Made by a program: the position numbers and the translations under genes
Assembly (NCBI GenBank): GCA_943788175.1
Contig: CALSPG010000001.1
Coordinates: 32,001 to 96,000, forward strand
Source of the DNA: an uncultured bacterium
Lineage (GTDB): Bacteria > Fidelibacterota > Marinisomatia > Marinisomatales > UBA1611
DNA: 64,000 bases
Direction: 5' to 3'
Notes under the pieces: model-generated
Seen by the model: the letters and a program-made list of their open reading frames with translations, nothing else
Databases searched by the model: none
Told to the model about the DNA's origin: nothing
Shown: positions 14,593 to 64,000 of the stretch, piece by piece
Layout: every line of letters begins with the position of its first letter
Numbering within the stretch: the first letter of the stretch is position 1

Positions 14593-15222
14593 TCAATTAT
14601 ATCTTATGTTATCCACAATCTTTACTTGATCTGAAATTTTAGTGCTCAAATCTAATTTCTTTAAATTTGAGTGATTATGCACAAGTAATAGTTCTCTCTT
14701 CAAAACTTCGTATTTACTTCGCCCCAAGTCTTCTAAAGCTAAATAATTAAGGCTAAGTGAGTGCATCACTTGGTTGTATTTTTCAAAGAGAAAAGTTGAA
14801 TTGAAATTCAGCTTGTCTGTTTCAAAGCTTTTATAATCTAAGTCGATTATCTCCGTTTCAAAACCAGCACCATAACCATAGTTTAATTTTATTAAAAAAT
14901 ATTCAATATTGATCTTTCCAAATGGGATGGTAATATCTTTATCTTGATGGTCAATATCATCGAGATTAGATCTGAAAAATGTGTATCCATCATCATAATA
15001 ATTATCATTTTCAAAAGATGAAACTTGTAATTCTAAACTTTCATCTATAATTGGCAAAATATTTCGATAAATATTTTTAGTAGTATTGATTTTTTGTTTC
15101 TCGATGTCATTTAATAAACTGATTTGAGGTACTGAAGTTTTTTGTAATTTAGATATTTCACTTGAAGAAAGTTTTTCTAAAACTACTTCAATCAAATTGC
15201 CTCTTATTTGTATGTTTACCAT
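14593..15222 (-). CDS. Hypothetical protein
   Basis: Long ORF with no recognisable motif. ATG 15222 preferred because the longer start abuts the divergent kynU start. Confidence 0.6.
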   Translation of the reverse strand: MVNIQIRGNLIEVVLEKLSSSEISKLQKTSVPQISLLNDIEKQKINTTKNIYRNILPIIDESLELQVSSFENDNYYDDGYTFFRSNLDDIDHQDKDITIPFGKINIEYFLIKLNYGYGAGFETEIIDLDYKSFETDKLNFNSTFLFEKYNQVMHSLSLNYLALEDLGRSKYEVLKRELLLVHNHSNLKKLDLSTKISDQVKIVDNIRYN

Positions 15223-23686: not shown

Positions 23687-24079
23687 ATGCGTTTTATTAT
23701 AAAAATTAGTTCAGTGTTTTTGATATATAATGTTTTTCTTTCAGCTCAAATAATGGTTATTTCTCAAAACAAAGTTGTTTTTAGTAAAATGAAAGAATAT
23801 CAAGATTTAATGGAGAAGCATTGGAATCCAGTTTTTGATAAATTAGTCGACGAAGGCAAACTGAATGAAGTTGGCTCGTTGAGCCATAGCTGGGGAGATG
23901 AATGGAATATTGTTGGTTATTATAAGGCAAAAGATCTTGCTTCTTTTGAAAAAGCATGGTCTGAAGGGTATAAAAAATTTGCGGATAATACCCCACAGAA
24001 TGTTCGAAATAGGATAACTGCGATGATTATTGAGCATAAAGATAATATTTATCAAATAAAACACTCATATTCAAAATAA
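23687..24079 (+). CDS. Hypothetical exported protein (possibly dimeric alpha/beta barrel-like)
   Basis: AAGGAG RBS, signal peptide (LSA-Q), HSWGDEWN and EHKDNIY motifs. Confidence 0.7.
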   Translation: MRFIIKISSVFLIYNVFLSAQIMVISQNKVVFSKMKEYQDLMEKHWNPVFDKLVDEGKLNEVGSLSHSWGDEWNIVGYYKAKDLASFEKAWSEGYKKFADNTPQNVRNRITAMIIEHKDNIYQIKHSYSK

Positions 24080-24099
24080 GAATTTCATTCTTCTAATTT

Positions 24100-24128
24100 A
24101 AAAGCTCGTTTCTAACGGGCTTTTTTTT
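24100..24128 (+). terminator. Intrinsic terminator
   Basis: AAAAGCTCGTT-TCT-AACGGGCTTTT stem running into a T8 tract. Confidence 0.85.
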
Positions 24129-24169
24129 AATTTTTTTTTTGCATTAGTTAAATGATTGTGGTTAAGTTT

Positions 24170-24190
24170 AATGAGATTAAGTCTCAATAA
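24170..24190. promoter_or_regulatory. Fur-like operator, copy 1
   Basis: AATGAGATTAAGTCTCAATAA contains a 7-1-7 inverted repeat (TGAGATT-A-AGTCTCA). 18/21 identical to 28011-28031. Lies upstream of an iron permease. Confidence 0.65.
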
Positions 24191-24221
24191 AGATAACATT
24201 ATATAGAAATACAAACAAACT

Positions 24222-24306
24222 TAGCAATTTAGGCCTGACCTCTCTTTGAATTATAAGTCTACACTCCAAGAGCATGTTCCAACTCAGAGTCTGGGCCTAA
24301 TTGCTA
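24222..24306. other. 85-nt structured inverted-repeat element in the FTR1 leader (candidate ncRNA, cis-regulator or miniature repeat)
   Basis: TAGCAAT(T)TAGGCC ... GGCCTAATTGCTA outer stem with further inner pairing. GC-richer than its flanks. Confidence 0.5.
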
Positions 24307-24324
24307 GAAACAGAAAAAAATAAA

Positions 24325-25269
24325 ATGGCAGAATTAATAATTGTATTTAGGGAAGTTCTAGAGGGCTCTCTTATAGTAGGTATCCTTTATACTTATTTAA
24401 AAAAAACAAATCAGTCTGATGCTATTATTCGATTATGGCAGGGTGTTGCAGCCGCATTAGTTGCTAGTATAATTGGCTCATTCCTCTTTCAAATATTTGC
24501 GAATGGATTTGAAGGGAAGTCAGCGAAATTATTTGAAGGGGTTGTAATGATAATTGCAGCTGCTATCTTAGGGTCAATGATTGTCTGGATGGCAAAAAAC
24601 AGGAATATAGCAGGTGATCTTAAAGAAAAAGCGGATAATGCGTTATCGAGCGATAAGGTCGGGTATAGTATTTTTGCTTTATCTTTTATTTCGGTTTTTA
24701 GAGAAGGTATAGAAACAATTCTCTTTTTATATGGAATCATTATAAAAGAAGGTGGTTTAAATATTGTTTTGTCGCTCATTGGCGCTGCTCTCGGCATTGG
24801 ATTGTCATTTATGATTTTTATACAAGGTCGCAAAGTTCCTTTGAAAACTTTTTTTAACGTGACCTCAGGTGTCTTGGTGTTTGTTGCCGCTGGTATGTTC
24901 ACATATGGAGTTCATGAGCTTGAGTCTGCAAATATAATTCCTTATTACGGTGGTGCAATTAAAACAGATAACAATAATATAATTGCGACAAGAATAAATG
25001 GAGATATAAAAGTATTTACTTTCGAAGATAGTAAAAATAATCGGGCAACAGTGGTCAATAAAGCAAGTAAGTGGGCCTCTCGAATTTGGGATTTAAACCC
25101 GCCAAAAAATGAAGACGGTACTTACCCTGTCATGCATGATAAAGGAGCTGTAGGGGGCTTAATGAAAGGCTTATTTGGTTACAATGGTGATCCTAGCATG
25201 ATCGAAGTAATTGCCTGGGTTCTCGTTGTTCTAGGTCTTGGCTTTACATGGAGAAAGGCAGCAGCATGA
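24325..25269 (+). CDS. FTR1/EfeU family iron permease
   Basis: Two RExxE motifs (REVLE, REGIE), ELFEG-like KLFEG, GVHEL, LFGY...P. Confidence 0.92.
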   Translation: MAELIIVFREVLEGSLIVGILYTYLKKTNQSDAIIRLWQGVAAALVASIIGSFLFQIFANGFEGKSAKLFEGVVMIIAAAILGSMIVWMAKNRNIAGDLKEKADNALSSDKVGYSIFALSFISVFREGIETILFLYGIIIKEGGLNIVLSLIGAALGIGLSFMIFIQGRKVPLKTFFNVTSGVLVFVAAGMFTYGVHELESANIIPYYGGAIKTDNNNIIATRINGDIKVFTFEDSKNNRATVVNKASKWASRIWDLNPPKNEDGTYPVMHDKGAVGGLMKGLFGYNGDPSMIEVIAWVLVVLGLGFTWRKAAA

Positions 25270-25463
25270 TAAAAACAGTATTAAGGATTCCTTCCTTTTT
25301 TATGACAACTTCACTTTTTTTAATTCTATTTCTTGGTTGTGAGGATGATGCAATCCTTGAGCCTCAAACTGATACGGGTTCAGATGGTGGTAGTTATGGC
25401 TTTTTAATGCTAGAGAATGATACTGAAGTAGATGAGTTTGAAGAAAACCCTGAAATATTTTAG
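25266..25463 (+). CDS. Small acidic lipoprotein (65 aa)
   Basis: ATGA overlap with the FTR1 stop; lipobox FLG-C; 14 D/E in the 40 residues after Cys. Confidence 0.7.
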   Translation: MIKTVLRIPSFFMTTSLFLILFLGCEDDAILEPQTDTGSDGGSYGFLMLENDTEVDEFEENPEIF

Positions 25464-25472
25464 AAAATATAG

Positions 25473-27953
25473 ATGAATAAAATATTGCTCAAAAGCATGA
25501 TTGTTTATTTAGGCCTTCTTTTTTCTTCGTTTTTATTTGCTGACGACGATCAAAATAGTGTTAAAGGCTCAGTAATAAATAACAGCCAAGGAATACCTCT
25601 GCAAGGAGCAAATGTTGAGCTTATGGGTGATAACAGTCAAAAATATGGAGTAACCACTGATAAAGAGGGAAAATTTAATATTGATGATATAGAAGATGGC
25701 AAATATAAGATTAGTATAAGTTTCATTGGTTTTGAAGATTACAGAGAAGATGTCGCTATAGAGTCTGGCAAATCTTACAAAATTGATGCTGTTCTTGAAA
25801 TTCAGCCAATTGCTATGAGTCGTTTAGAGATTATAAGTGATGCAACCGCACCTTATCAGAAATTACCTGGCGCTGCAACTGTTATGGGTATGCAAACAAT
25901 AAAACTTGTTAATCCTTTAGGAACGCAAGAAATGTTAGAACACATACCAGGTATTAATGGCTTTTCCGATGATGGAATTGGAAACTCTCGAATTAGTATT
26001 GGTATTAGAGGTTTGAATCCAAGACGTAGTTCAAGAGTATTAATTTTAGAAGATGGAGTGCCAATTCAGCCAGCGTTATATGTTTACCCTAACATGTATT
26101 ATAACCCTCCGGCAGAACGAATTGACCGATTAGAAGTGATCAAAGGCAGTGGTGCTATTAATTTTGGACCTCAAACTATGGGGGGAGTAATAAATTATTT
26201 CACTCGCAGACCAAGAAATGATTTTGGAGGTACTTTCAAAATAACTACTGGAGAGAATGGTTTTGCTAGTATTTTTTCTGAAATTGGTGGTTCTAAAAAT
26301 GAAAAACTAAAACCAGAATTGCAACTTGTATACAAGAAAGGAGATGGATTTAGGCAAAATAATGAATTTGAACAAATTAATGCAACCTTGAAAATTAATT
26401 ATTTGCCTTCATTAAATAAGAATGTTTATCTCAAATCAAATATCAATTATGAAAATTCAAACGCTACTTACACTGGATTAACAGAATGGTCATTTGAAAA
26501 CGATCCTAAATTCAATCCAAAAGAGAATGATAACTTCAAGATTTTTAGAGCTTCTATCGATTTAATACAATCAGAACGCTTGAGTTCAGTTTTATCAAAA
26601 AATACAACTGCTTTTACAAGTTATTTTGATAGGCGGTGGTGGAGAGAAAATGACGTTTTCATACTAGCGTCTGATCTTGGCACAGAAAGCCCAAGCGCAG
26701 CAAATTATTACGATCCGTATGATTTAGTCAGAGTAGGCAACGGGCAAGACAATTTTGGGATACTTAGAACTTTTTATGTCGCTGGCTACGAGCAGTCATA
26801 TCGTTTAAAGCATTTGCTTTTTGAAAATAAATCCACCTTGGAAATTGGTGCTCGAATATATTGGGAGCGCTTTATCGATGATAAGAAACAAGGCGATAGT
26901 CCAAATAGTCGTGACGGCATTTATTTTATACCAGCTACATCTGAAGACGAGGCTCCAACAATAGTTGGTCAAAGCCATCATTATGAGACAATGGCTTTCA
27001 GTGGTTTCTTAACCGAATCAATAGAGTTTGGCTCTTTTGATGTTCGACCAGGTGTTCGCATTGAGGTTTTTGAACAGGAGAGGATTGATCGCCTTGCTGG
27101 TTCAACTTATTTAGACAAAACAACATCTGCTATTTTACCAGGGGTTGGTTTTATCAGCGAACTTCAAGGTTTTAACTTTTTTGGAGGTGTCCATAGAGGT
27201 TTTACTCCGCCATCAAGTGGTGCTTTGAAGATATTAAATTTTGGGGACAGTGTTTCAGATGGTGGGTTAGATCTTAAATCAGAAAAAAGTTGGAATAAAG
27301 AAATTGGAATTAGAGGAAATATTTCATTTATACAGTTTGAATATTCAGGTTATCATGTTGCAATAGAAGATTTAGTTGCCGCTGGAAGAGGAACTGCTTT
27401 TAAAAATTTAGGTAAGGCTAATACGATGGGTGTAGAAACAAAAACCATCTTTAACTTTAGTGATTTAAACAAACTATTCCCAAGCGTTGATGTTTCTTAT
27501 TCTTTTTTAAAAACAGAAGTTATAGAGGGCGAAATAATATCGAATGTTGCTGGTTCAGTCGGGAATCAAATAGATATTAGTGGAAAAGAGCTGCCATATG
27601 CGCCTTCTCATACCTTAATGGCTGGTATTTATAATGATTTTGGTGAAAAACTATCTCTTAGGGTAGATTTTAAATATGTAAGTAAAGTCTATACAGATTT
27701 TGAAAACATAGAAAAGACTAAAAATCTCGGTATTCAAGGGTCCGTTCCTGAGTATGCTACTATAAATTTAAGCGCTAATTTTCATCACAGCGAAAAATTA
27801 AGAATATATTTATCCGGAAAAAATATTACCGATGAAAGTTATATTGGATCAAGGCTTCATTCTAATCCAGGTCAGAAAGAAGCGGGTCTAAGTTCAGGAA
27901 TAATCATAGGCCCAAGAAGACAGATTAATCTTGGGTTAGAATATACTTTCTAG
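25473..27953 (+). CDS. TonB-dependent receptor, FecA-like, with N-terminal carboxypeptidase-regulatory-like domain
   Basis: Signal peptide; plug motifs IGIRGLNPRRSSRVLILEDGVP and RLEVIKG...GGVINY; LPYAP; C-terminal LEYTF. Confidence 0.93.
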   Translation: MNKILLKSMIVYLGLLFSSFLFADDDQNSVKGSVINNSQGIPLQGANVELMGDNSQKYGVTTDKEGKFNIDDIEDGKYKISISFIGFEDYREDVAIESGKSYKIDAVLEIQPIAMSRLEIISDATAPYQKLPGAATVMGMQTIKLVNPLGTQEMLEHIPGINGFSDDGIGNSRISIGIRGLNPRRSSRVLILEDGVPIQPALYVYPNMYYNPPAERIDRLEVIKGSGAINFGPQTMGGVINYFTRRPRNDFGGTFKITTGENGFASIFSEIGGSKNEKLKPELQLVYKKGDGFRQNNEFEQINATLKINYLPSLNKNVYLKSNINYENSNATYTGLTEWSFENDPKFNPKENDNFKIFRASIDLIQSERLSSVLSKNTTAFTSYFDRRWWRENDVFILASDLGTESPSAANYYDPYDLVRVGNGQDNFGILRTFYVAGYEQSYRLKHLLFENKSTLEIGARIYWERFIDDKKQGDSPNSRDGIYFIPATSEDEAPTIVGQSHHYETMAFSGFLTESIEFGSFDVRPGVRIEVFEQERIDRLAGSTYLDKTTSAILPGVGFISELQGFNFFGGVHRGFTPPSSGALKILNFGDSVSDGGLDLKSEKSWNKEIGIRGNISFIQFEYSGYHVAIEDLVAAGRGTAFKNLGKANTMGVETKTIFNFSDLNKLFPSVDVSYSFLKTEVIEGEIISNVAGSVGNQIDISGKELPYAPSHTLMAGIYNDFGEKLSLRVDFKYVSKVYTDFENIEKTKNLGIQGSVPEYATINLSANFHHSEKLRIYLSGKNITDESYIGSRLHSNPGQKEAGLSSGIIIGPRRQINLGLEYTF

Positions 27954-28010
27954 ACCAATATAGACTAAAATCTTATAATAATAATTGATAGCATAATCTT
28001 TTTAATAAAT

Positions 28011-28031
28011 AATGATAATAAGACTCAATAA
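28011..28031. promoter_or_regulatory. Fur-like operator, copy 2
   Basis: AATGATAATAAGACTCAATAA has a perfect TGATAAT Fur half-site. Lies just upstream of the AGGAG RBS of 28051. Confidence 0.65.
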
Positions 28032-28050
28032 CATAATAGGAGAAAACAAA

Positions 28051-29349
28051 ATGAAACTAAACAATAGTTTAATGTTTCTTTCATCACTATTGCTTTTTGT
28101 CTTCATTGGGTGTGAATCCAGTGACGATAATGACGATGATGGAGCTGCATTGATTGATACGCCGACTGAATACTCATTTGAGAGCAGGTTTAATAGCGGA
28201 GAAAACAGCGTCTCTTATTCTGGGCAAGTAGTAAGAAACTTACTGATCAATGACATCAAAACTCAGATAGGTACTGATGCTGCTTCTGGTAACCCGGCTA
28301 CGTTAGTTAGTATGATGGCAAATGACAATGCTAATCAAGCTATTCTATCATCTGCTGGTGATATGTCGACCGTACAGGCAAAGTACCATGATATCTCGTC
28401 GAGTCATTTAAATGATAGGCTAACAGCAGTAGATAGCTATGTAATACCTGGATATGGAGCTAATGCTGGTACTTTGGTTAATGGATGGGTTCAAGAAAGT
28501 GTTGTGAACGGTTTAACCAGAACAACTGGTAATAATGCTGGGATTCGTTTAGATCAAATTACTCAAAAGACTTTGTGGGGTGCTGTTTCATACTGGCAAG
28601 GAACTTCAAAGTATATGAGTAAAATTCCAACAGATGACAACTCAGTAGCTAGTGGCGATGCAAATTATACAGCGATGGAACATCACTGGGATGAATCATT
28701 TGGTTACTTTGGTGCTGCGGTTGATTACAACACTGGGTATACAGATGATGTTGATAGAAAATCAAGTCCATACAATGATTCAAATAGTGATGGCTCTATT
28801 GATTTTAAATCTGAATACAACGTTGGCTGGGCGATCACAGCTGCAAAAAGAGATGAATGTAGCGCTTGTGATGTTAACTACGATTTCACAAAAAAAATAT
28901 TCGATGCTTATCTAGAAGGAAGGACACTTATTACTAACCAAGCTGACCTTGCTGATATTTTAGTTCAAAGAGATATTGTGATGAATAACTGGGAAAAAGT
29001 AGTTGCTGCTGTTTCTATTCATTATGTAAATGATGTGGCAGCTGATATTGCTGGATTAATTGCTGCTGCTGATACTGCTATCGTAGCGGGTTCTGACGCA
29101 ACCGCTGATTATGAAAATCATTGGGGTGAAATGAGAGGTTATGCAAATGGTCTTCTTTATAATGATTTCAAAGTCATTACGGATGCAAACCTTGATCGTA
29201 TTTTGACCGTCATGGGTACAGCGCCTGTTTATCCATCAAACGGAAATTTTGATGCGATGCAAGCATATCATACTTCTCTAGTGGGTGAAGTTAGAGCTAT
29301 CTTTAAAGCGTCTTATGGTTTTTCCGATGCTAATGTAGCTGGTTGGTAG
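28051..29349 (+). CDS. DUF4856-like lipoprotein, putative iron-binding/uptake accessory
   Basis: AGGAG RBS; lipobox FIGC; PTEYSF, SVSYSGQ..R, MEHHWDESFGYFG, HY, HWGE motifs. Follows the TBDT. Confidence 0.75.
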   Translation: MKLNNSLMFLSSLLLFVFIGCESSDDNDDDGAALIDTPTEYSFESRFNSGENSVSYSGQVVRNLLINDIKTQIGTDAASGNPATLVSMMANDNANQAILSSAGDMSTVQAKYHDISSSHLNDRLTAVDSYVIPGYGANAGTLVNGWVQESVVNGLTRTTGNNAGIRLDQITQKTLWGAVSYWQGTSKYMSKIPTDDNSVASGDANYTAMEHHWDESFGYFGAAVDYNTGYTDDVDRKSSPYNDSNSDGSIDFKSEYNVGWAITAAKRDECSACDVNYDFTKKIFDAYLEGRTLITNQADLADILVQRDIVMNNWEKVVAAVSIHYVNDVAADIAGLIAAADTAIVAGSDATADYENHWGEMRGYANGLLYNDFKVITDANLDRILTVMGTAPVYPSNGNFDAMQAYHTSLVGEVRAIFKASYGFSDANVAGW

Positions 29350-29374
29350 ATAAAGGTTAAATAATAGTTAAGAG

Positions 29375-29409
29375 AACAGGGAACCATATTTGGTTCCCTG
29401 TTTTTTTTT
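29375..29409 (+). terminator. Intrinsic terminator
   Basis: 12-bp stem AACAGGGAACCA-TATT-TGGTTCCCTGTT running into a T tract. Confidence 0.9.
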
Positions 29410-29427
29410 GTATAGTTTCTCCTCCAA

Positions 29428-30843
29428 ATGTTTAAACGTAATAATAGTTTATTAATCTTTTTATTTTTGATTTGTTTACTCTCAAGAGCTTTAACTAGTA
29501 TTTATTATATTGAAGATATTGATAGTCTAAGGTTTGCTCTCAGTATTAAAGATTACGACATAACAAAACTACAGCCTCATTTTCCAGGCTATATTATTTT
29601 CTGCTTTTTAATTAAAACTCTTTATCTATTTGTCGGTAATATGGGTTTATCCTTCTCAATAGTAGGCGGTTGTTCCATTTTTTTTATTATATACTACTTA
29701 CTAAGAATATTCAACACTAGTCTTAAGTCTTATGAAGGCAGGTATATAGCTTTTATTATATTTCTCAATCCTCTTTTTTGGCTAATGAGTAATAGATATA
29801 TGCCTGATTTAATGGGCTTAGCGATTTCAGTGAGTGCTATTTACTATCTAATTTATGCAAAAATTCAAGGGAGCCACCTTGAAAAAGGATTTTTTATCTC
29901 GGGTCTACTTGCTGGCGTGAGGCTATCATATTTACCATTAATAATTTTTCCTTTGATGAAAATATTTGTTTTAAGCAACCGTAAACAAAGTTTAACTAAA
30001 TCGTTTTTAATTGGTGTCTTTATTTGGCTTGTACCAATGGTTTTATTGACTGGTTCAAGTGACTTAATCATGATGGCTAAAAAGCAAACCTCTGGCCATT
30101 TTATGGACTTCGGTGGTACTATACTCACAGAACAAGGACTCTTTGATCGCTTTATACTGCTTATTAAATCTGTATGGGCTGATGGTTTTGGGGGTTATTG
30201 GTCTTCTAGGGGTGTGACTTCTATTTTTCTATCGACTATTCTTTTGATTCAATTTATAATTAGTTTGAAAGATGTTTCAAAAAAATGGATGTCTGAAAAT
30301 AAAATAAAGCCAATAATTATATGTATGGGTATCTATTTCGTATGGATATTATTATTTCAGAACGTTGTTTACAAAAGTAGGCATGTACTCCCAATAATAC
30401 TTTTTGTATGTATTTTGCTTATTGAGGGACAGGAAAAATACAGGGGCAAACTATTTTCTGGAATTGTTTATACATATTTTGCCATATTATTATTTCATAA
30501 CGCTAATTTAATTAATCAACATGTAAACTTTACTGCTGTTAAAAAATTGAAAGATTATATATCTGCCGACAATGGTTTTGATACGATAATTAGTATTCCT
30601 TTAATGAATTTTTACTTTAAGAGCCACCAAATAAAAGCTGATTTTATAAATGTAGAAAATGATGAGGACATTAAAAAAGTCCTATTTGATAGTTCGGGCA
30701 GGAAAAAAGTCTTAATGGTTGGTGACTATAGACACCTTTTTAATGATAAAAATTCAAGTTTTAATAGAGATACTGTCTTTTACCATAATCCATATATGAA
30801 CCAAATGTGGTCAAAAATAACAACATTTAAGATGATAAAATAA
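29428..30843 (+). CDS. Multi-pass membrane protein, GT-C-like
   Basis: EDIDSLRFAL...QPHFPGY loop, MPD, GVR, RH; about 10 TMs plus a soluble C-terminal tail. Confidence 0.6.
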   Translation: MFKRNNSLLIFLFLICLLSRALTSIYYIEDIDSLRFALSIKDYDITKLQPHFPGYIIFCFLIKTLYLFVGNMGLSFSIVGGCSIFFIIYYLLRIFNTSLKSYEGRYIAFIIFLNPLFWLMSNRYMPDLMGLAISVSAIYYLIYAKIQGSHLEKGFFISGLLAGVRLSYLPLIIFPLMKIFVLSNRKQSLTKSFLIGVFIWLVPMVLLTGSSDLIMMAKKQTSGHFMDFGGTILTEQGLFDRFILLIKSVWADGFGGYWSSRGVTSIFLSTILLIQFIISLKDVSKKWMSENKIKPIIICMGIYFVWILLFQNVVYKSRHVLPIILFVCILLIEGQEKYRGKLFSGIVYTYFAILLFHNANLINQHVNFTAVKKLKDYISADNGFDTIISIPLMNFYFKSHQIKADFINVENDEDIKKVLFDSSGRKKVLMVGDYRHLFNDKNSSFNRDTVFYHNPYMNQMWSKITTFKMIK

Positions 30844-30851
30844 TTTTCCAA

Positions 30852-32186
30852 ATGAAAAATCAAAATAATATAGATATTGTTGGTGGTGGCCCGGCCGGAT
30901 TAAGTGTCGGCTATTTTGCAAAGAAAGTAGGTATCCAAGCAAAGATCCACGAAGCATCAAGCACAATTGGTGGTAACTGTAAAACAATAATTGACGGAGA
31001 ATTTAAGTATGACACAGGCGCGCATAGGCTGCATGATAAGAGTGAGTATGTTACTAGTGAGATAAAACTATTGCTTGGAAATAAATTAAAGCGTGTAACA
31101 TCGCCTAGTAAAATTTATTATAGAGGTAAGTTCTTTAATTTTCCAATATCAATATCAGATTTAGTATATAATCTAGATTTGAGTTCATTAGTTAAAATAA
31201 TATATGAAAATATTCTAACTAGATTAAGAAAAAGACCTCTTCCAGAATCCTTTAAACAACTTGCTTATCAGAGTTATGGTAAAACTATTTCAAAAATGTT
31301 TTTAATATCATATACTGAAAAATTGTGGGGAGAGGACGCTGATAACCTTGATCCAACAATATCAGGCGGTAGACTAAAGGTTCTAAATCTAAGGTCACTA
31401 ATTAAGGATTTATTTTTGATAAAAAAAACTAATTCTGATCATCTAGAGGGTGCCTTTTATTATCCTGAGCAGGGTTTTGGCGAAATATTCAAATCTTTAG
31501 GAGCTAAAATTGGCCCAGAAAATATTTTTTTAAATAAAAAAGTTTGTAACGTATATCATGATAATAATAAGATTTTATCGATTACCGATAACAACGGTGA
31601 AAATAATTTTATAAGTAATTTAGTCTACACTGCTCCAATTGATGAGCTAGTAAGGTCTTTAATTCCTGCTCCTCCAAAACATGTTTTAGATAAACTAAAA
31701 TTCATAAAATACCGAGAATTGATGATCTGTGTTTTATACTTAGACCTAAAATCATTTTCGCGAAATGCTTCAATATATTTTCCAGATTTAGAATGCCCCT
31801 TTACAAGAATTTACGAGCCAAAAAACAGGAGTGCTAAAATGTCTCCTATTGAAAAAACATGTATTGTTATTGAGGTCCCAATGGGAGAAAGAAATGTAAA
31901 AATTGATTCAACAAAAGAAGTGGTTTATCATAAAATTCTTAGTTATTTAGAAAATAAAAACTTAGTAAAATCTGAAAAGATTATTGATTATAAACTTGTT
32001 AAGGTGAAAAGCGCATACCCTATTATTACGATAGATAGCATTTTAAAAATTAAAGAAATAAAAAAATACTTATCTAGGTTTAATAACCTTCATATGATTG
32101 GTCGGAATTCAAGTTTTGAATATTTACACACTCATAATATAATGGAAAAATCGAGGTCGTTAATTAATAAAATGGTTTCATTATAA
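30852..32186 (+). CDS. FAD-dependent oxidoreductase (protoporphyrinogen oxidase/UDP-galactopyranose mutase-like superfamily)
   Basis: IVGGGPAG, EA...IGG, DTGAH, YTEKLWG, FYYP..GFG, AYP, IGR. Confidence 0.82.
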   Translation: MKNQNNIDIVGGGPAGLSVGYFAKKVGIQAKIHEASSTIGGNCKTIIDGEFKYDTGAHRLHDKSEYVTSEIKLLLGNKLKRVTSPSKIYYRGKFFNFPISISDLVYNLDLSSLVKIIYENILTRLRKRPLPESFKQLAYQSYGKTISKMFLISYTEKLWGEDADNLDPTISGGRLKVLNLRSLIKDLFLIKKTNSDHLEGAFYYPEQGFGEIFKSLGAKIGPENIFLNKKVCNVYHDNNKILSITDNNGENNFISNLVYTAPIDELVRSLIPAPPKHVLDKLKFIKYRELMICVLYLDLKSFSRNASIYFPDLECPFTRIYEPKNRSAKMSPIEKTCIVIEVPMGERNVKIDSTKEVVYHKILSYLENKNLVKSEKIIDYKLVKVKSAYPIITIDSILKIKEIKKYLSRFNNLHMIGRNSSFEYLHTHNIMEKSRSLINKMVSL

Positions 32187-32507
32187 CCAGAATTAAAATT
32201 ATAAATAATAATATTAAAGGCGCTTCATTTATAATTCTAAAATATTTTGAAGATTGTTTTTGATTCTGATTTTTGAATTCTTGCAGATTTAAACCTTATA
32301 GGGCATTATGAACGGTTATGGGGCTTGATTATTTAATAGATTATTATCAGTCTGGTTTGTCGCTTCAAGTTGAGGCTATTTTAAGGGGGAAAGGATATCT
32401 TAAGACTTTTCCATTAGATTCAGCTATTATTATTTATGATAATTTATCAGGACTTCAAAAAAATAATAAACGGTAGAGATATTAAAAACTCGTTTTTGTA
32501 ATATTGT

Positions 32508-34574
32508 ATGATGCAATATTTACATATTATCAATGTTTTAACTTTTTTATCAATCATTTTTTTTAGTTCCTGTAATGATAATAAAGGAGATACCTCAGCA
32601 CCTGAAGTATCTATTACGTTTCCTGAAAATGGAGCGGTTGTTAATGAAATTGTCACTATCTCGGCAAATGCCACCGATAACGAGGAAATTGATTTTGTTC
32701 AGTTCTTTGTGAATGATAGTTTAGATAGTGCTTTAGTCTCTGTAGAGCCATATTTATTTAATTGGAATACAAATAACATTGATGATGGAAATTATACTAT
32801 AGCAGTTATTGCGCAAGATGCTAGCAATAACACAAGCGATACATTGCAACTTAATTTAACAGTTGATAATACGCTTTCGTCTCCAAGCGCTGTGGAAATT
32901 ATTGATATATCATATAGCCTCAATCTGATGTCCATTCGTTTTAATAAATCTGTCGAAAACGACTTTAATGATTATACTATTCTCACATCAAACTCCGTTG
33001 AAGGCTCTGAAAAAAGTGAAATTGGTAAAATTGTAGAAGTTACAGACACTCTTTTTACAACTACTGATTTTAACCCTATTGAAGAATTGTGGTATTATGT
33101 TAAAGTAACAGACATTTATGGCTATTCCGAAACTAGTCAAGGGTTCAGAGTAAAAGACAGTGCTCCTTCACTATCTATTTTAAACCCTCCAAACTATAAT
33201 AGAGGGTCACTCCGTTTTCAATGGTCGATGAATAGCGATAATGATTTTTTAAAATATCATTTATATTCTTCCAATAATGAAGATATGTCCAGTAAAGTAC
33301 TAATAATCACTAATAATATAAAAAGTGATACTACTCATTCGGTTCATTTAGATTTAACTAGTCAGACAAAATATTACCAGCTTGAGGTAGAAGACCATTG
33401 GGGGTTTGTAAGTGTCGGAGCCTCGATTCAGGCTAATCTTCCTTTTAAGTTTATAAAGAATTTTGGAGGAACTCAAAATGATAGGGGGTATGCAGTGCAG
33501 TCTGTGATTGATGGCTATGTCATTGTTGGTTCTACAAATTCATTAGGCTCTGGTAATTCAGATGTCTGGGTTTTAAAACTCGATTTTGAGGGACAACAAG
33601 TGTGGTCACGAGTCTATGGTGGTCAAGGGAGTGATTTTGGTAAAGATATCAAAACCACATCGAACCCTGATGGCTATATTATTACTGGTTCGACAAACTC
33701 TTACAATTCAGATTCAAACATGGATATGTGGGTAATAAGGACAGATGATTTAGGTCAAACCTGTCTCTTTGATGAAAATGGTGAATGTTCCGAAAGTGAT
33801 ACTAAATGGGCGCGTACATTTGGAACAAGTGGAAATGATTATGGAAATAGTGTGGTCGAATCAAATGGTGAGTTTATTGCCGTTGGAAAAAGTGGAAGGA
33901 TACCATCTTTTTTTGTAGTGAAGATTGACGCTTTTGGTGGTAAAATTTGGGAAAATCTTTATGGTGAAGGTCCCAACGATAATGGCCAATATGTTATTGA
34001 ATCTCCTGGGCAAACGCCAAAGTATATTGCGCTTGGGCAGAGTAATAATCTTAATACCTCTGATAGTGATATTTGTATAATAGGAATTAATTCAAATGGA
34101 ATAGAGCAATGGGTTAGAAGTATTCAATACGGGAATTCTGTAAATGAACAAGGGTATTATATTTTTAAGCTTAGTGGAGGTGGTTATATCGTAACTGGCA
34201 CTAAACAAATAAATCATTGGGATGACCTATTGATGATGAAAGTGAACAATGATGGCACTCAATCTAGTAGCTGGACTTTTGGTGGTAGTTATAATGAAGT
34301 CGGTAATTTTGCTCAAGAGGTATCAGATGGCTATATCGTTTCAGGGTCTACTGAATCTTATGGCCAAGGTCTATATGATGCTTGGGTAGTTAAAACCAAT
34401 GATGATGGAGAGGAAATTTACAATCATACCTTCGGTGGTAATCTAGATGACAAAGCTCTTGGAGGAGTAAAAAGTATAAATGGAGACCCAGTTCTTGTCG
34501 GTTATACAAAATCTTTTGGTAATGGCGGAGAAGATATTCTTTTGATTGTACTAGACCGTGACTACCAGCCGTGA
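32508..34574 (+). CDS. Lipoprotein with Ig-like/FN3 domains and a C-terminal beta-propeller
   Basis: Lipobox FSSC; PEVSITFPENG...FNWNT...DGNYT Ig domain; repeated W-x-x-x-(Y/F)GG-x-x-x-D-x-G blades. Confidence 0.82.
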   Translation: MMQYLHIINVLTFLSIIFFSSCNDNKGDTSAPEVSITFPENGAVVNEIVTISANATDNEEIDFVQFFVNDSLDSALVSVEPYLFNWNTNNIDDGNYTIAVIAQDASNNTSDTLQLNLTVDNTLSSPSAVEIIDISYSLNLMSIRFNKSVENDFNDYTILTSNSVEGSEKSEIGKIVEVTDTLFTTTDFNPIEELWYYVKVTDIYGYSETSQGFRVKDSAPSLSILNPPNYNRGSLRFQWSMNSDNDFLKYHLYSSNNEDMSSKVLIITNNIKSDTTHSVHLDLTSQTKYYQLEVEDHWGFVSVGASIQANLPFKFIKNFGGTQNDRGYAVQSVIDGYVIVGSTNSLGSGNSDVWVLKLDFEGQQVWSRVYGGQGSDFGKDIKTTSNPDGYIITGSTNSYNSDSNMDMWVIRTDDLGQTCLFDENGECSESDTKWARTFGTSGNDYGNSVVESNGEFIAVGKSGRIPSFFVVKIDAFGGKIWENLYGEGPNDNGQYVIESPGQTPKYIALGQSNNLNTSDSDICIIGINSNGIEQWVRSIQYGNSVNEQGYYIFKLSGGGYIVTGTKQINHWDDLLMMKVNNDGTQSSSWTFGGSYNEVGNFAQEVSDGYIVSGSTESYGQGLYDAWVVKTNDDGEEIYNHTFGGNLDDKALGGVKSINGDPVLVGYTKSFGNGGEDILLIVLDRDYQP

Positions 34575-34912
34575 GGGCTATCAAGTGTTATATAGTTTTT
34601 TTAACCCTTCTAATGCTCCTAGGTTGCATTGGTCCATTTAAAAAGCAACCTGTTCCTAATTCAATAAGCGAGCAAATTATAACTGTTCATCCAGAGATTT
34701 CCTTGGAGTGGAAAAAGATTAGAGCCATTCAATCAGATAAAGCTCAAATAATTAATTTGATTGGAGATCCTGATTTTGTTGATCATCACAATGCCGGCGA
34801 AGATTGGTATTATAGTCATCACAGAAGCATAGATTATGGATTAATAAGTTTTCCTGTTAAAGGACATCTTGTAAATCATGCTCAATATATTAAATACCCT
34901 GAATGGAGATAA
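34571..34912 (+). CDS. Small lipoprotein, BamE/SmpA-like
   Basis: Lipobox LLGC; KAQIINLIGDP...WYY. Confidence 0.6.
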   Translation: MRAIKCYIVFLTLLMLLGCIGPFKKQPVPNSISEQIITVHPEISLEWKKIRAIQSDKAQIINLIGDPDFVDHHNAGEDWYYSHHRSIDYGLISFPVKGHLVNHAQYIKYPEWR

Positions 34913-34967
34913 AATTATTAGATTTATGAACGTTTTAACTAAACTATAGCTATGAGAAATAAAAATT

Positions 34968-36230
34968 ATGACATCATCAAATAAATATGTTTTAAGTATA
35001 ATATTAGTTTCTTCTTTATTTGCGCAGAAAATTGAATTATCGAGTGGCTTTTACCATGATAAAAATCAAAAAGATTCAATAGAAGTTGTTTCTAGTTTAG
35101 AAAAAATTGATTTACAGTTAACTAATGGTTCAAAATTGAGGTTTTTTCGCGAAGACAATGAATATAAGATGCAAAATCTAACGAACGATGGCTTTACAGG
35201 TTTAAGACTACTAAATAACAATAAATTTGAATTGTATTATGATCATAGTCTTCCAAAGTCTTCTTTTAATTCTTATGAACTTTATAAAAAACCTGGAGTT
35301 TTAAATAAAGTAATCGCTTTCTTGGTTACTAGCGCCCTGTTTATTTCAATATTTCAATTTTATCTTAAGCTAAATAAAGTGTGGAAGCGAAGAACTATTG
35401 CTGAAGTTGCCAATAGTATATCTATTGTAGCTGCTTTATTAGGGTTCACTGTGGGCTTTCCATTTTTACTAAATAGTCTTTTTATTAGTGGAGATTATCC
35501 TGCTGCTGGAAAGTCTGTTCTCGGCCTAGGTATGGCTGTAATGATGACATTAATAAGTATGGGTTATTTTGTTGAAGAGAACAAAGGTAAGAACTTTTTT
35601 AGGCTTTTGTTTGATGCGCTAGGAGCAGAGAAAAATGAATCAACCGATTTACTAAGTGCAATGCTTAGACCACAAGGTGCAACAAAAATAATTGAAATAC
35701 TTACACAGCTTGCGGCAATTGATGAAGAAGTAGCTCAAGAAGAGGTAGATTTGATTAATGACTTTGCAAGTAAGTGGAGAATAAATATTCCAGAAATTAA
35801 AGTCGGTGCTCCTGGAAAAATTACGAATCTTGTAGAGCTAAAAGCACTTGTTCAATCATATCTTGATGAAAAACCAGATGTAGAAGTTGCTCAAAACCTA
35901 GTTGACTTAATTAATATGATGGCTGAAGCAGACGATGAGGTTACAGATGAAGAGGCTATGGCAGTTGGGGAGTTTACAGGAATGATTGGACATTACGTCA
36001 GTCAAGAAAAAGGCGGTTCAATTGATGCTTTTGAAGTTGTTATAGTACCACAAAATGAAAATCAGTCCAATGCTGTCAAAGAGCTAATTCCAAATATAGA
36101 CTCTGTTAAAAAACAAGGTGGCGAGATATTTATTGTCGGGACGTTTTATTCTGAGGATTATGCTGAAGCTGTCTGCGGTAAATATATTTCACTAGGTCTT
36201 TTCACTAATTCAATAAAAGTAAAAATTTAA
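34968..36230 (+). CDS. Membrane protein with TerB-like domain
   Basis: Signal peptide, 3 TMs, then LAAIDEEVAQEE and MAEADDEVTDEE TerB-type repeats. Confidence 0.75.
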   Translation: MTSSNKYVLSIILVSSLFAQKIELSSGFYHDKNQKDSIEVVSSLEKIDLQLTNGSKLRFFREDNEYKMQNLTNDGFTGLRLLNNNKFELYYDHSLPKSSFNSYELYKKPGVLNKVIAFLVTSALFISIFQFYLKLNKVWKRRTIAEVANSISIVAALLGFTVGFPFLLNSLFISGDYPAAGKSVLGLGMAVMMTLISMGYFVEENKGKNFFRLLFDALGAEKNESTDLLSAMLRPQGATKIIEILTQLAAIDEEVAQEEVDLINDFASKWRINIPEIKVGAPGKITNLVELKALVQSYLDEKPDVEVAQNLVDLINMMAEADDEVTDEEAMAVGEFTGMIGHYVSQEKGGSIDAFEVVIVPQNENQSNAVKELIPNIDSVKKQGGEIFIVGTFYSEDYAEAVCGKYISLGLFTNSIKVKI

Positions 36231-36248
36231 GTAATAACTATCTGATTT

Positions 36249-37736
36249 TTAGTTTTTTATAGCCCCAGGAACATTTGCTTTAATATATTGGACTGCTTCA
36301 AGGCCTTCATAAATTTTTGCCTTTGTTGGCTTAGTTGGATTTTCTACTGCTAGAAAAATCAACTTTGATTCTTTGTCATTTATAAAATATTGTAAAAGTT
36401 TATCTCCAGAAAGTGTTGTAGCTCCTAAGACCACTTCTAATTCTAATTTGATGTTACCAATACCATTGTATGATCTATATACTATTTCAGAACATGCTTG
36501 TTTTTCGCCACTAGTCAAATCAAAATCAAAATCATAATCATGGCCAAGAAATGAGTAAAGATTTTTGAGGGCTATGCGGATTTCACTATCATTTAAATTT
36601 GGTCTAAATGCGATAATTCTATTTGCATAACCATTTAAATAGGAGTCTAATGTAGATGTTCTTACCCCATCAGAATTTGCCTCAATTATATTATGATTTT
36701 CACCAATGTATTTTTTCTGATTTTCTTTTAGGCGAACTGCGCTTAGCATTGCATTCTTTTTAACGTCTTGAGAGCCGGTAAAAGATAAGGCATGTTTGAA
36801 ATAACCAGGTAAAAAGATATTACTTAGATATCCACTACTATAAGTTAGGATTATATCTCCAGGCTTTAATGCTTTTGTCACATGCTTTTTTTGTCGTCTT
36901 GAAAATTTTATGCCTTCAACAAGTGGCATCCTTACATCTGCCATGATTGTAAATAAAAACTCTTGTATTGCTTTTAGTTGGCTTCCTGCTTCATCAACCA
37001 TCGTGTTTACTGTTTCCTCGATAGTGTTGACCTGCATTATCTCTGCAGCCTCTAAGGGAAGAATAGTATAACTATCTAAGATTAATCTTTTATAATTATC
37101 ATATTCCTTAGCTAAGATTTCGGTCCTAGCTATCAATTCATCTATAAAAGGGAAGTAATCAGTTTTTTTATAAACTTCTTTTCTTCTATTGATTTGCCTT
37201 TTAAAGAATTCATTGGCAATATCAATATTGTTAACATTTTTAGGATTGGTTAGGTTGCTAATTAAGTAATTAAGACCATCTTTTTTTATTTCAGCTCTAG
37301 GGAACTCCTCATTTAATTTATTTATTAGAGGTTGATTACTAGCAGTTTTGAGGACTAATTCAGCGCTATGCTTGTAAAGAGTTAAAGAAGCACAATATCC
37401 AAGAGCAAATGCCTGTGCATTATTTTTCTTAAATTTTGACTTATTAGAAATATCTTTGTAGGCATTTACAATATCTAAAAGAGATTTTGTGCATAATGTA
37501 TATCTAAAGTAGAGTCTCTCAATTTCATCGTACTGGTTATTTGTAAAATATTTTTTGCCATTTTCTACGGAAGGTTTAATTAAAGAAAGCGATGATATTG
37601 TTTGATCTAAAACACTGTCAAATGTTTTTATATGATTGAAGTCATCTTCAGGAACCCAACGTTGAGAATAGTTTTGACCATGAGAAAAGAAAAAAGCAAT
37701 GAGAAAAACTGATTTTCTAAACGGTATTTTGGTCAT
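36249..37736 (-). CDS. Permuted NlpC/P60 (YiiX/YebB-like) cysteine hydrolase with long N-terminal domain
   Basis: LKPGDIIL, PGYFKHA (His), IIEA, YDFDFD...ACSEIVY (Cys); signal-like N-terminus. Confidence 0.82.
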   Translation of the reverse strand: MTKIPFRKSVFLIAFFFSHGQNYSQRWVPEDDFNHIKTFDSVLDQTISSLSLIKPSVENGKKYFTNNQYDEIERLYFRYTLCTKSLLDIVNAYKDISNKSKFKKNNAQAFALGYCASLTLYKHSAELVLKTASNQPLINKLNEEFPRAEIKKDGLNYLISNLTNPKNVNNIDIANEFFKRQINRRKEVYKKTDYFPFIDELIARTEILAKEYDNYKRLILDSYTILPLEAAEIMQVNTIEETVNTMVDEAGSQLKAIQEFLFTIMADVRMPLVEGIKFSRRQKKHVTKALKPGDIILTYSSGYLSNIFLPGYFKHALSFTGSQDVKKNAMLSAVRLKENQKKYIGENHNIIEANSDGVRTSTLDSYLNGYANRIIAFRPNLNDSEIRIALKNLYSFLGHDYDFDFDLTSGEKQACSEIVYRSYNGIGNIKLELEVVLGATTLSGDKLLQYFINDKESKLIFLAVENPTKPTKAKIYEGLEAVQYIKANVPGAIKN

Positions 37737-63332: not shown

Positions 63333-64000
63333 ATGAAAATCAAATTTTTATCGTTTATATTTATTTTTTACACTGCTTTTGGTGCTGAAAATCTTACATC
63401 TATTTCAAAAGATCCAGGGTTTAAGTATCAAGTTAAAAACAATGGTAATGGTCTCATTACATACACCACGCCAGAATATGTTATTGATTCTAAAAATGAT
63501 ATTAATGGTAAAATTCTTAAAAAGCCTGTTTTTTCAAATTCTAGCCAAACTTCTGAGCCTGGAATGCCCGATCTGCCATCAAGCACAACATTTATCGCAG
63601 TTGACCCAAATAAAAATTACTCCATAGAAGTAACATATGGCTCTTCACGCTTTATTAATGACGTTGATATAGTCGCAAAAGGTTCTTGGGATAATAACGT
63701 AAATGAAGACGTAGTCTCAGAACCAAATTATTCTGATATTGATAATTATTATCCAGCTGACATCGCTTTGATATCTGAACCTATGGCTATGAGAGAATTA
63801 TCATTGCTTACATTAACAGTCTCGCCATTTCGGTATCATCCTGATCAAAAAATCTTAGAAGAATTTATTGATATTGAAATAGAATTAGTTGAGAACGGTA
63901 GTCGTGAATCTGCTCTGTTTCACCCTTCAAAACGATCAAGAGCTTTTGAACCATTATATAAATCAATGATTGCAAATTATTCTTCTTTAAACCGTGAAAG
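63333..64000 (+). CDS. Secreted C25 (gingipain-type) propeptide-domain protein, 3'-truncated by the window edge; missing from the ORF track
   Basis: Own translation MKIKFLSFIFIFYTAFGA...EPGMPDLP...YYP...EPMAMR...VSPFRYHP...FEPLYKSMIANY is open to the window end. Confidence 0.78.
   Translation, partial: MKIKFLSFIFIFYTAFGAENLTSISKDPGFKYQVKNNGNGLITYTTPEYVIDSKNDINGKILKKPVFSNSSQTSEPGMPDLPSSTTFIAVDPNKNYSIEVTYGSSRFINDVDIVAKGSWDNNVNEDVVSEPNYSDIDNYYPADIALISEPMAMRELSLLTLTVSPFRYHPDQKILEEFIDIEIELVENGSRESALFHPSKRSRAFEPLYKSMIANYSSLNRE

Follow-up and report, generated by a model that had tools for sequence, protein, structure and literature searches.

The window analysed here, a stretch of 64,000 nucleotides (nt) from the Marinimicrobia/SAR406 assembly GCA_943788175.1 (contig CALSPG010000001.1, positions 32,001 to 96,000 of the forward strand), carries a gene for an FTR1-family iron permease that is directly followed by genes for a small acidic lipoprotein, a TonB-dependent transporter (TBDT) and a DUF4856 lipoprotein. 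We consider it somewhat probable that these genes form an iron-starvation operon, in which the TBDT and the two lipoproteins import iron and FTR1 completes the import without a known periplasmic partner, DUF4856 being the partner of the receptor. Iron uptake would then have a new variant here, whose mechanism we infer. In the dark and low-oxygen ocean, SAR406/Marinimicrobia rank with the most abundant heterotrophs, and we know of no established route by which they acquire iron. The assembly comprises 2.27 Mb in 12 contigs and is 92% complete, and every genome-wide absence given below applies to that part of the genome.

The FTR1 permease and the receptor behind it

Six co-oriented genes occupy positions 24100-32200 on the + strand of the window, encoding FTR1, the small lipoprotein, the TBDT, the DUF4856 lipoprotein, a membrane protein of 471 aa and a flavin adenine dinucleotide (FAD) oxidoreductase. 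An initial annotation, made from the sequence alone, had placed the first four in one locus, and all four are present on this strand. The permease (24325-25269, +) is a member of the FTR1/EfeU family of inner-membrane iron permeases: it matches PF03239 with 156.4 bits (cut-off 25.3), its start at ATG 24325 agrees with all seven aligned homologues, and both RExxE motifs (REVLE and REGIE), two such motifs being the signature of the FTR1 family, are invariant in 7/7 aligned sequences. With 185.2 bits versus a cut-off of 255 it remains below the EfeU equivalog (NF041756). A profile search of the contigs found this one FTR1 in the genome. The segment between its last two membrane segments holds an insertion of about 45 residues (residues ~211-255), which is present in four of the seven aligned homologues and absent in three.

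The initial annotation had stated that neither a known FTR1 partner (EfeO/EfeB, P19/FetP or FtrA/B/D) nor an ATP-binding cassette (ABC) permease of the kind usually fed by FecA-type receptors is encoded in the locus, and its reading would have been refuted by canonical FTR1 partners elsewhere in the genome. The statement holds for the locus, and the known FTR1 partners were not found in the genome either: there were no matches to Peptidase_M75/imelysin/EfeO (PF09375), P19 (PF10634) or DyP/EfeB (PF04261, Dyp_perox_N), and tblastn searches of the genome with a poribacterial imelysin, with DHOR or with three cupredoxin partners from other Marinimicrobia gave no match. An FtrD-fusion query was matched in the genome (tblastn) only through its FTR1 part. 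Of other permeases of the inner membrane, FecCD, FeoB_C and ZIP were not found in the genome, a search that did not extend to ABC systems of the FbpABC type. Matches to FeoB_N (PF02421) are weak (33-42 bits), lie in open reading frames (ORFs) of 365-452 aa and were read as other GTPases.

The TBDT (25473-27953, +) consists of an N-terminal CarboxypepD_reg domain, a plug (PF07715, 59 bits) and a barrel (PF00593, 101 bits). Its description as 'FecA-like' in the initial annotation finds little backing: against the FecA ferric-dicitrate receptor model (NF041676) it reaches 122.3 bits, where the cut-off is 1100, its N-terminus is CarboxypepD_reg, and it stays below every NCBIfam cut-off. The small lipoprotein between FTR1 and the TBDT (25266-25463, +; alternative start 25248) has no family in Pfam or NCBIfam, and is nevertheless a conserved family, present in 22/23 aligned neighbours and ending in the pattern C-E-[DS]-D-P..GGSYG..NP-x-x-F at the C-terminus. 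Its likely start is the in-frame ATG at 25266, which the stop codon of FTR1 overlaps as ATGA. The mature part, about 41 aa long (C-E-D-D..GGSYG..NPEIF-COOH), contains 14 acidic and no basic residues. In Bacteroidota, acidic residues after the lipobox cysteine direct a lipoprotein to the cell surface, and because both lipoproteins of the locus begin with acidic residues after the lipid-anchor cysteine, both are probably surface-exposed. Co-folding of the mature small lipoprotein with residues 120-826 of the TBDT yielded no answer (score 0.00), which speaks neither for nor against binding.

The succession of FTR1 and TBDT is not a peculiarity of this genome. We surveyed 80 metagenome loci with an FTR1 57-100% identical to that of the window, 70 of which extend at least 700 nt downstream of this gene, and in 68/70 of these a TBDT directly follows FTR1. 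The receptor is orthologous to that of the window in 47 of the 70, nearly all of which also possess the small lipoprotein (three are without a detected match). Another 21 have a different TBDT of the CarboxypepD_reg type (checked with Pfam in six of them), 25-28% identical and right after FTR1, and have no DUF4856. The two loci without a TBDT are L161, where FTR1 is followed by an aminotransferase gene, and L169, with a flank of just 711 nt. In the phylum as a whole TBDTs are less frequent neighbours of FTR1 (8/26 loci). The FTR1-TBDT pairing is thus a lineage-specific variant that exists alongside canonical ones. Among the latter, a cupredoxin of 146-147 aa is encoded before FTR1 in all four checked loci of a streamlined 1-Mb genus (L177, L180, L192 and L197), and in L198 FTR1 is fused to an FtrD-like domain.

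The DUF4856 module

A second survey started from DUF4856 and covered 80 genome loci from many phyla. An orthologous TBDT lies directly upstream of DUF4856 in 62 of them, the gene for the 471-aa membrane protein follows DUF4856 in 50 of the 53 loci with room for it, and the FAD oxidoreductase gene is present in 45/48 with room. In a Cytophagales locus (L057) the last two genes are divergent and upstream of the TBDT, and are still adjacent to each other. By their titles the module loci belong to Marinimicrobia, Poribacteria, Latescibacterota, Gemmatimonadota, Kapaibacteria, Rhodothermales, Fibrobacteria and Bacteroidota, i.e. to about eight phyla or phylum-level groups. The small lipoprotein, the TBDT, DUF4856, the membrane protein and the FAD enzyme are a five-gene module of many phyla, which mostly occurs without FTR1. 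The module has iron- and haem-related neighbours elsewhere (ferritin, ferrochelatase, imelysin, di-haem DHOR, HmuY and ABM), and the 80 loci contain 35 imelysin ORFs, so DUF4856 co-occurs with imelysin and does not take its place. In Poribacteria (L036 and others) the module is part of an iron/haem island, with a porin-like gene, imelysin and a di-haem DHOR upstream, and an ABM monooxygenase, a second TBDT and two HmuY genes downstream.

The two surveys together cover the co-occurrence of FTR1, DUF4856 and TBDT that the initial annotation had suggested examining, and they divide its expectation: FTR1 and TBDT recur together, whereas DUF4856 tracks the TBDT and is accompanied by FTR1 in 7/80 loci only. 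DUF4856 therefore appears to belong with the TBDT and not with FTR1. The proposal that this lipoprotein, with its His/Glu motifs, relays iron to FTR1 is not supported by these counts, as the lipoprotein is also lacking in 21/70 FTR1-TBDT loci and co-occurs with imelysin.

A comparison with two congeneric species shows how the module came to lie behind FTR1. The regions 24131-25275 (leader and FTR1) and 32314-37000 of the window are 71-72% identical to both congeners, whereas 25276-32313 (+) has no counterpart in either; they hold a cassette of 2.8 kb with a second type of receptor gene (TBDT2) and a 146-aa gene (p146) at this place. A 3'-end relic of the displaced p146 persists at 32312-32452 (+), 79% identical over 47 aa to the p146 of L123, and synteny resumes at 32314. 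With aligned flanks, a middle part without counterpart and the relic at its edge, the five genes moved in as one block, and FTR1 with its operator and leader is resident. The link between FTR1 and a TBDT survives this cassette exchange within the genus. The ORF of 130 aa directly upstream of the locus (23687-24079) belongs to no family and is likewise without DNA counterpart in the two congeners, which have about 67 nt at that place.

The DUF4856 lipoprotein itself (28051-29349, +; alternative start 28012) matches PF16148 with 55.4 bits (cut-off 22.3), as do all 48 aligned homologues. Marine metagenomes contain more than 1000 relatives of the protein, and its gene is present in marine metatranscriptomes of several studies; a literature search on DUF4856 and PF16148 found no paper. 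Its AlphaFold model is all-helical, with a predicted local distance difference test (pLDDT) of 90.5. Conserved motifs are EHxWDExFGYFG, a DxNxDGxID..E loop, HY338 and HWxE373, and the conserved residues comprise E223, H224, W226, D227, E228, Y232, R280, D281, R304, W327, E328, H337, Y338, W371 and E373, with H370 found in 35/48 members. These residues could bind metal. The DxNxDGxID..E loop, residues 256-268 of the 445-aa ORF, resembles an EF-hand; D256, D264 and E268 are at least 90% conserved, and six of the 48 members show weak EF-hand matches in Pfam.

No resemblance of DUF4856 to imelysin or to another solved structure could be established. Searches of the PDB with the sequence and its profile returned nothing useful, Foldseek gave no match at E <= 0.001, and the ESM Atlas returned one unnamed cluster at 0.80, which is below the trust level. 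In the comparison with imelysin/EfeO proposed in the initial annotation, the profile searches were negative: hhalign against the imelysin profile aligned only 20 signal-peptide columns (probability 34%), and the Peptidase_M75 profile matched none of the 48 members even at E = 1. VIA-align places the model among generic helical bundles, with imelysin 3pf0 at rank 48 (Z 6.1, root-mean-square deviation 3.6, 126 aligned residues).

The remaining two genes of the module were overlooked in the initial annotation because that reading stopped at the terminator behind DUF4856; its edges are correct for the transcript, while the conserved gene set continues to 32186. The polytopic membrane protein of 471 aa (29428-30843, +) has no Pfam match. 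Its model (pLDDT 85.5) shows the GT-C fold of membrane glycosyltransferases, as the 35 best-ranked Foldseek matches listed are all GT-C enzymes, including ALG12 (9s6t, E 1.5e-6), ALG9, ArnT (5f15) and PglB. An acidic motif in the first outward loop is typical of GT-C, and the corresponding loop here has E-D-x-D, with D32 invariant among 33 sequences and a conservation of at least 90% at E29 and D30. The FAD oxidoreductase (30852-32186, +; 444 aa), a cytoplasmic enzyme, matches Amino_oxidase, GLF and NAD_binding_8 in Pfam and falls into the PRK07208 / UDP-galactopyranose-mutase-like group; its best NCBIfam model is the PRK07208 'hypothetical protein' group, below cut-offs.

Putative operators, leader and probable extent of the transcript

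The unit of four genes is bounded by strong terminators, as the initial annotation had claimed. At its left edge the intrinsic terminator of the upstream gene (24100-24132, +; hairpin 24100-24124) was detected by a terminator scan. The right edge is a hairpin with T-run at about 29371-29409 (+), which the scan missed and which is evident in the sequence; it folds with -31.8 kcal/mol (z = -8.0), and none of 200 shuffles was as good. Contigs from marine metatranscriptome assemblies agree with these edges. In RNA run X1 a single contig of 5186 nt spans 24207-29392 and the contig of the upstream neighbour does not go beyond 24127; in a second study contigs begin at 24200, and a contig of a third study (X9) ends at 29379, followed by letters that we take to be sequencing adapter. 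This gives a weak-to-moderate hint that the transcript starts near 24200-24207 and ends within the terminator.

Two palindromes resembling Fur boxes had been noted in the locus, and comparative data bear out both. Box 1 (24172-24186), a 7-1-7 palindrome with the sequence TGAGATTAAGTCTCA, lies 14-21 nt before the starts of the RNA contigs and is a putative Fur-family operator: a site with at most three mismatches to TGAGAATNATTCTCA occurs in 72/77 related FTR1 upstream regions (not de-duplicated). The exact core TGAGA-N5-TCTCA occurs at two sites of the genome, both intergenic, where 2.4 would be expected from composition alone. Genome-wide matches to TGAGAATNATTCTCA with two or three mismatches lie mostly within ORFs and were set aside, and the two exact core sites were kept. 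The other exact copy (TGAGAATTATTCTCA; C8:58954, or about 2455-2469 of locus L083) is located 55 nt before the gene of a 201-aa OMP_b-brl barrel (L083:2510-3115), which adjoins a PSCyt1 cytochrome c gene with a type IX secretion system (T9SS) tail. This barrel gene may be a second member of the box 1 regulon.

Box 2 (TGATAATAAGACTCA, 28013-28027) lies in the spacer between the TBDT and DUF4856 and precedes the strong AGGAG ribosome site of the latter. Poribacteria have GATAATGAGACTCATTATC-type sites at the same position, one to four mismatches from the Escherichia coli Fur consensus. With at most 4/19 mismatches to this consensus, sites are found in 16 of 78 distinct TBDT-DUF4856 spacers, compared to 3 of 840 shuffles. 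Outside Marinimicrobia, a box is found in the 400 nt before the module in 18 of 44 loci, the background being 0.06 per 400 nt. The locus itself has no match to the E. coli consensus at three or fewer mismatches, and the sites of the window that match it best (14994-15012 and 63735-63753) are inside ORFs in AT-rich DNA and probably due to chance. A Fur gene is located directly upstream of FTR1 in three Marinimicrobia relatives (L185, L187 and L188), and the genome has two Fur-family genes (C6:291920-292267 and C5:457196-457513). By its boxes the locus can be regarded as a unit under iron-type (Fur-family) regulation, whose regulator would sense iron.

The stretch that separates box 1 from FTR1 includes an element of 88 nt (24221-24308, +), a candidate new regulatory RNA. 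Its long-range stem is paired in 94.2% of cells across 26 distinct sequences (20-58% in slid controls), eight of its ten pairs show compensatory changes on both sides, and no shuffle reached the observed covariation score. The stem encloses the near-invariant unpaired core TATAAGTCTAAACTCCAAGAAyAGGTTCC. Rfam gave no match at the gathering score in the window, and in 24000-24450 only terminator-like chance matches at E <= 10. Our covariance model of the leader (R1) has a single match in the genome; among 69 loci searched it finds its own class only, with no confident match in leaders of class A2 or class B, and other FTR1 lineages carry different leaders. The leader accompanies FTR1 whichever TBDT follows, since the alignment on which it is based (A5) mixes both locus types.

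The proposed iron route, its rivals and known systems

Taken together, the unit would read as a promoter overlapped by a palindromic operator, the leader RNA, FTR1, the 41-residue acidic lipopeptide, the TBDT, the second Fur-like box, DUF4856 and the terminator. Under iron starvation the TBDT and the two lipoproteins would capture iron species and import them across the outer membrane, and FTR1 would carry the iron released into the periplasm through the inner membrane, with no EfeO, P19 or cupredoxin involved. DUF4856 would be the partner of the receptor and not that of the permease, and the GT-C and FAD pair might modify a component of the module by a glycosylation step. The idea of a different iron route from the outer to the inner membrane, already put forward in the initial annotation, thus retains the FTR1-TBDT pairing, the missing partners and the Fur-type boxes, and loses the role of DUF4856 as a relay to FTR1. 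A far-reaching version would combine the acidic lipopeptide, the TBDT, DUF4856 as an iron binder of new fold and its own GT-C and flavoenzyme into a five-gene outer-membrane iron-capture machine behind the SAR406 FTR1, a route free of siderophore-ABC systems and gated by the Fur-type operator and a metal-sensing leader; in this complete form we find the proposal doubtful.

Several observations weigh against an FTR1-completed iron import, in which the roles in binding and transport are ones we infer. Of 201 genomes drawn from the phylum, FTR1 was found in only 27. Beyond Marinimicrobia no FTR1 lies near the module, the seven DUF4856 loci with FTR1 being six titled Marinimicrobia/Neomarinimicrobiota and one titled 'uncultured bacterium'. 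The FTR1-TBDT pairing may be co-regulation only, because other FTR1 lineages of Marinimicrobia pair with cupredoxin or Fur and have no TBDT within 1.5 kb. The absence of known FTR1 partners extends to the assembled 92% of the genome, and the only other candidate divalent-metal permease found there is a weak Nramp-family ORF (34.7 bits, 420 aa; C1:23491-24510, 8 kb before the window). Assembled RNA contigs cannot prove a single transcript, its ends or its level, and DNA may be present in RNA libraries. The GT-C and FAD genes are separated from DUF4856 by a strong terminator and may serve another process, and with two Fur-family genes in the genome the metal sensed by the box-binding regulator is a matter of interpretation.

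The most serious rival, which we regard as possible and nonetheless on the unlikely side, is that FTR1 and the TBDT module import iron independently of each other and have no more than a promoter in common, FTR1 taking up iron that entered through porins and the cargo of the TBDT crossing the inner membrane by another transporter. This would agree with the occurrence of the module without FTR1 in Poribacteria, Latescibacterota, Gemmatimonadota and others, with the cupredoxin or Fur partners of FTR1 in other Marinimicrobia with the interchangeable TBDT behind FTR1 and with the presence of the weak Nramp-like ORF. However, FecCD, FeoB_C and ZIP were not found in the genome, and neither was a canonical periplasmic partner for FTR1; moreover, the TBDT stands right behind FTR1 in nearly all loci surveyed (68/70), and the genes for FTR1 and the small lipoprotein overlap by their stop and start codons. 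Alternatively, DUF4856 could be an imelysin/EfeO-like periplasmic stand-in that hands iron to FTR1, for which its conserved His, Glu, Asp, Tyr and Arg residues (EHxWDE, HWxE, R304, E328, HY338), the lack of M75, P19 and DyP matches in the genome and the presence of imelysin 3pf0 in the fold list (Z 6.1) can be adduced. We think this quite unlikely: across phyla DUF4856 accompanies the TBDT and not FTR1, it is missing from the 21 loci with the other receptor and co-occurs with true imelysin genes, hhalign recovered the signal peptide only, with no M75 match among the 48 members and none by Foldseek at E <= 0.001, and the acidic residues after its lipobox cysteine suggest export to the surface by the rule for Bacteroidota.

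It is finally conceivable that iron is not involved at all, and that the TBDT-DUF4856-GT-C-FAD module handles another metal, a glycan or a cofactor, the palindromes being those of a Zur-, Mur- or PerR-type regulator. The GT-C and FAD enzymes have no known role in iron uptake, the TBDT is under all NCBIfam cut-offs, the genome has two Fur-family genes, the second box 1 core site precedes a small outer-membrane barrel whose role is not known, and DUF4856 has an EF-hand-like loop. This explanation seems to us very improbable in view of the neighbours of the module in several phyla (FTR1, ferritin, ferrochelatase, imelysin, DHOR, HmuY and ABM), the one to four mismatches that separate the poribacterial boxes from the E. 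coli Fur consensus and the Fur genes beside FTR1 in relatives. We therefore prefer the operon with FTR1-completed import. If it is true, neither a periplasmic oxidase nor a chaperone is indispensable to FTR1, and the module offers candidate functions for DUF4856, the 41-residue lipopeptide and the pair of GT-C and flavoenzyme.

FTR1 systems with a periplasmic partner are EfeUOB of E. coli and Bacillus, cFtr1-P19, FetMP and FtrABCD. Like EfeUOB and its kin, the locus has a permease of the FTR1 family that contains two RExxE motifs and whose gene stands under a Fur-type box, and relatives of the same phylum use a cupredoxin partner or an FtrD fusion. It differs from them in that M75/EfeO, DyP/EfeB, P19 and cupredoxin were not found and a TBDT gene lies behind FTR1. 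A literature search combining FTR1 with TonB-dependent receptors, imelysin or Marinimicrobia yielded passages in which no FTR1-TBDT operon is described. In agreement with our reading, a published study found TBDT transcripts (K02014) of Marinimicrobia to be elevated when no iron had been added (PMC11069385).

Other known forms resemble the receptor side of the locus. A DUF4856-imelysin-TBDT form (L066-L080) likewise has a DUF4856 lipoprotein beside a TBDT under Fur-like boxes, with an imelysin ORF after DUF4856. In contrast to the window, imelysin and a di-iron enzyme of the membrane belong to that form, and its TBDT shares only about 25% identity with ours; the form of the window has the small lipopeptide, GT-C and FAD enzyme instead, with no imelysin in Marinimicrobia. 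The SusC/SusD-type and HmuY-type pairs of Bacteroidota are composed of a TBDT and a surface lipoprotein. The locus is similar to these pairs in its CarboxypepD_reg TBDT encoded beside lipoproteins with acidic mature N-termini, and dissimilar in that no resemblance to SusD or HmuY could be detected for DUF4856 and the TBDT reaches 55 bits against a SusC/RagA cut-off of 368.

The closest parallel for the proposed route itself is FciA with FeoABI in Stenotrophomonas maltophilia, in which a TBDT for ferric citrate feeds a non-ABC permease (PMC9047314). Once past the TonB receptor, the iron is there taken up by a permease of the secondary or ferrous type and not by an ABC system of the FecBCDE type, as is proposed here. 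Unlike in that system, the permease of our locus is FTR1 and shares an operon with the receptor, which is no orthologue of FecA or FciA and is accompanied by two lipoproteins. FecA-FeoB of Pseudomonas aeruginosa is a route similar to FciA-FeoABI. If our reading is true, the passage from TBDT to FTR1 would be a third inner-membrane outlet for TonB receptors, beside ABC permeases and FeoB.

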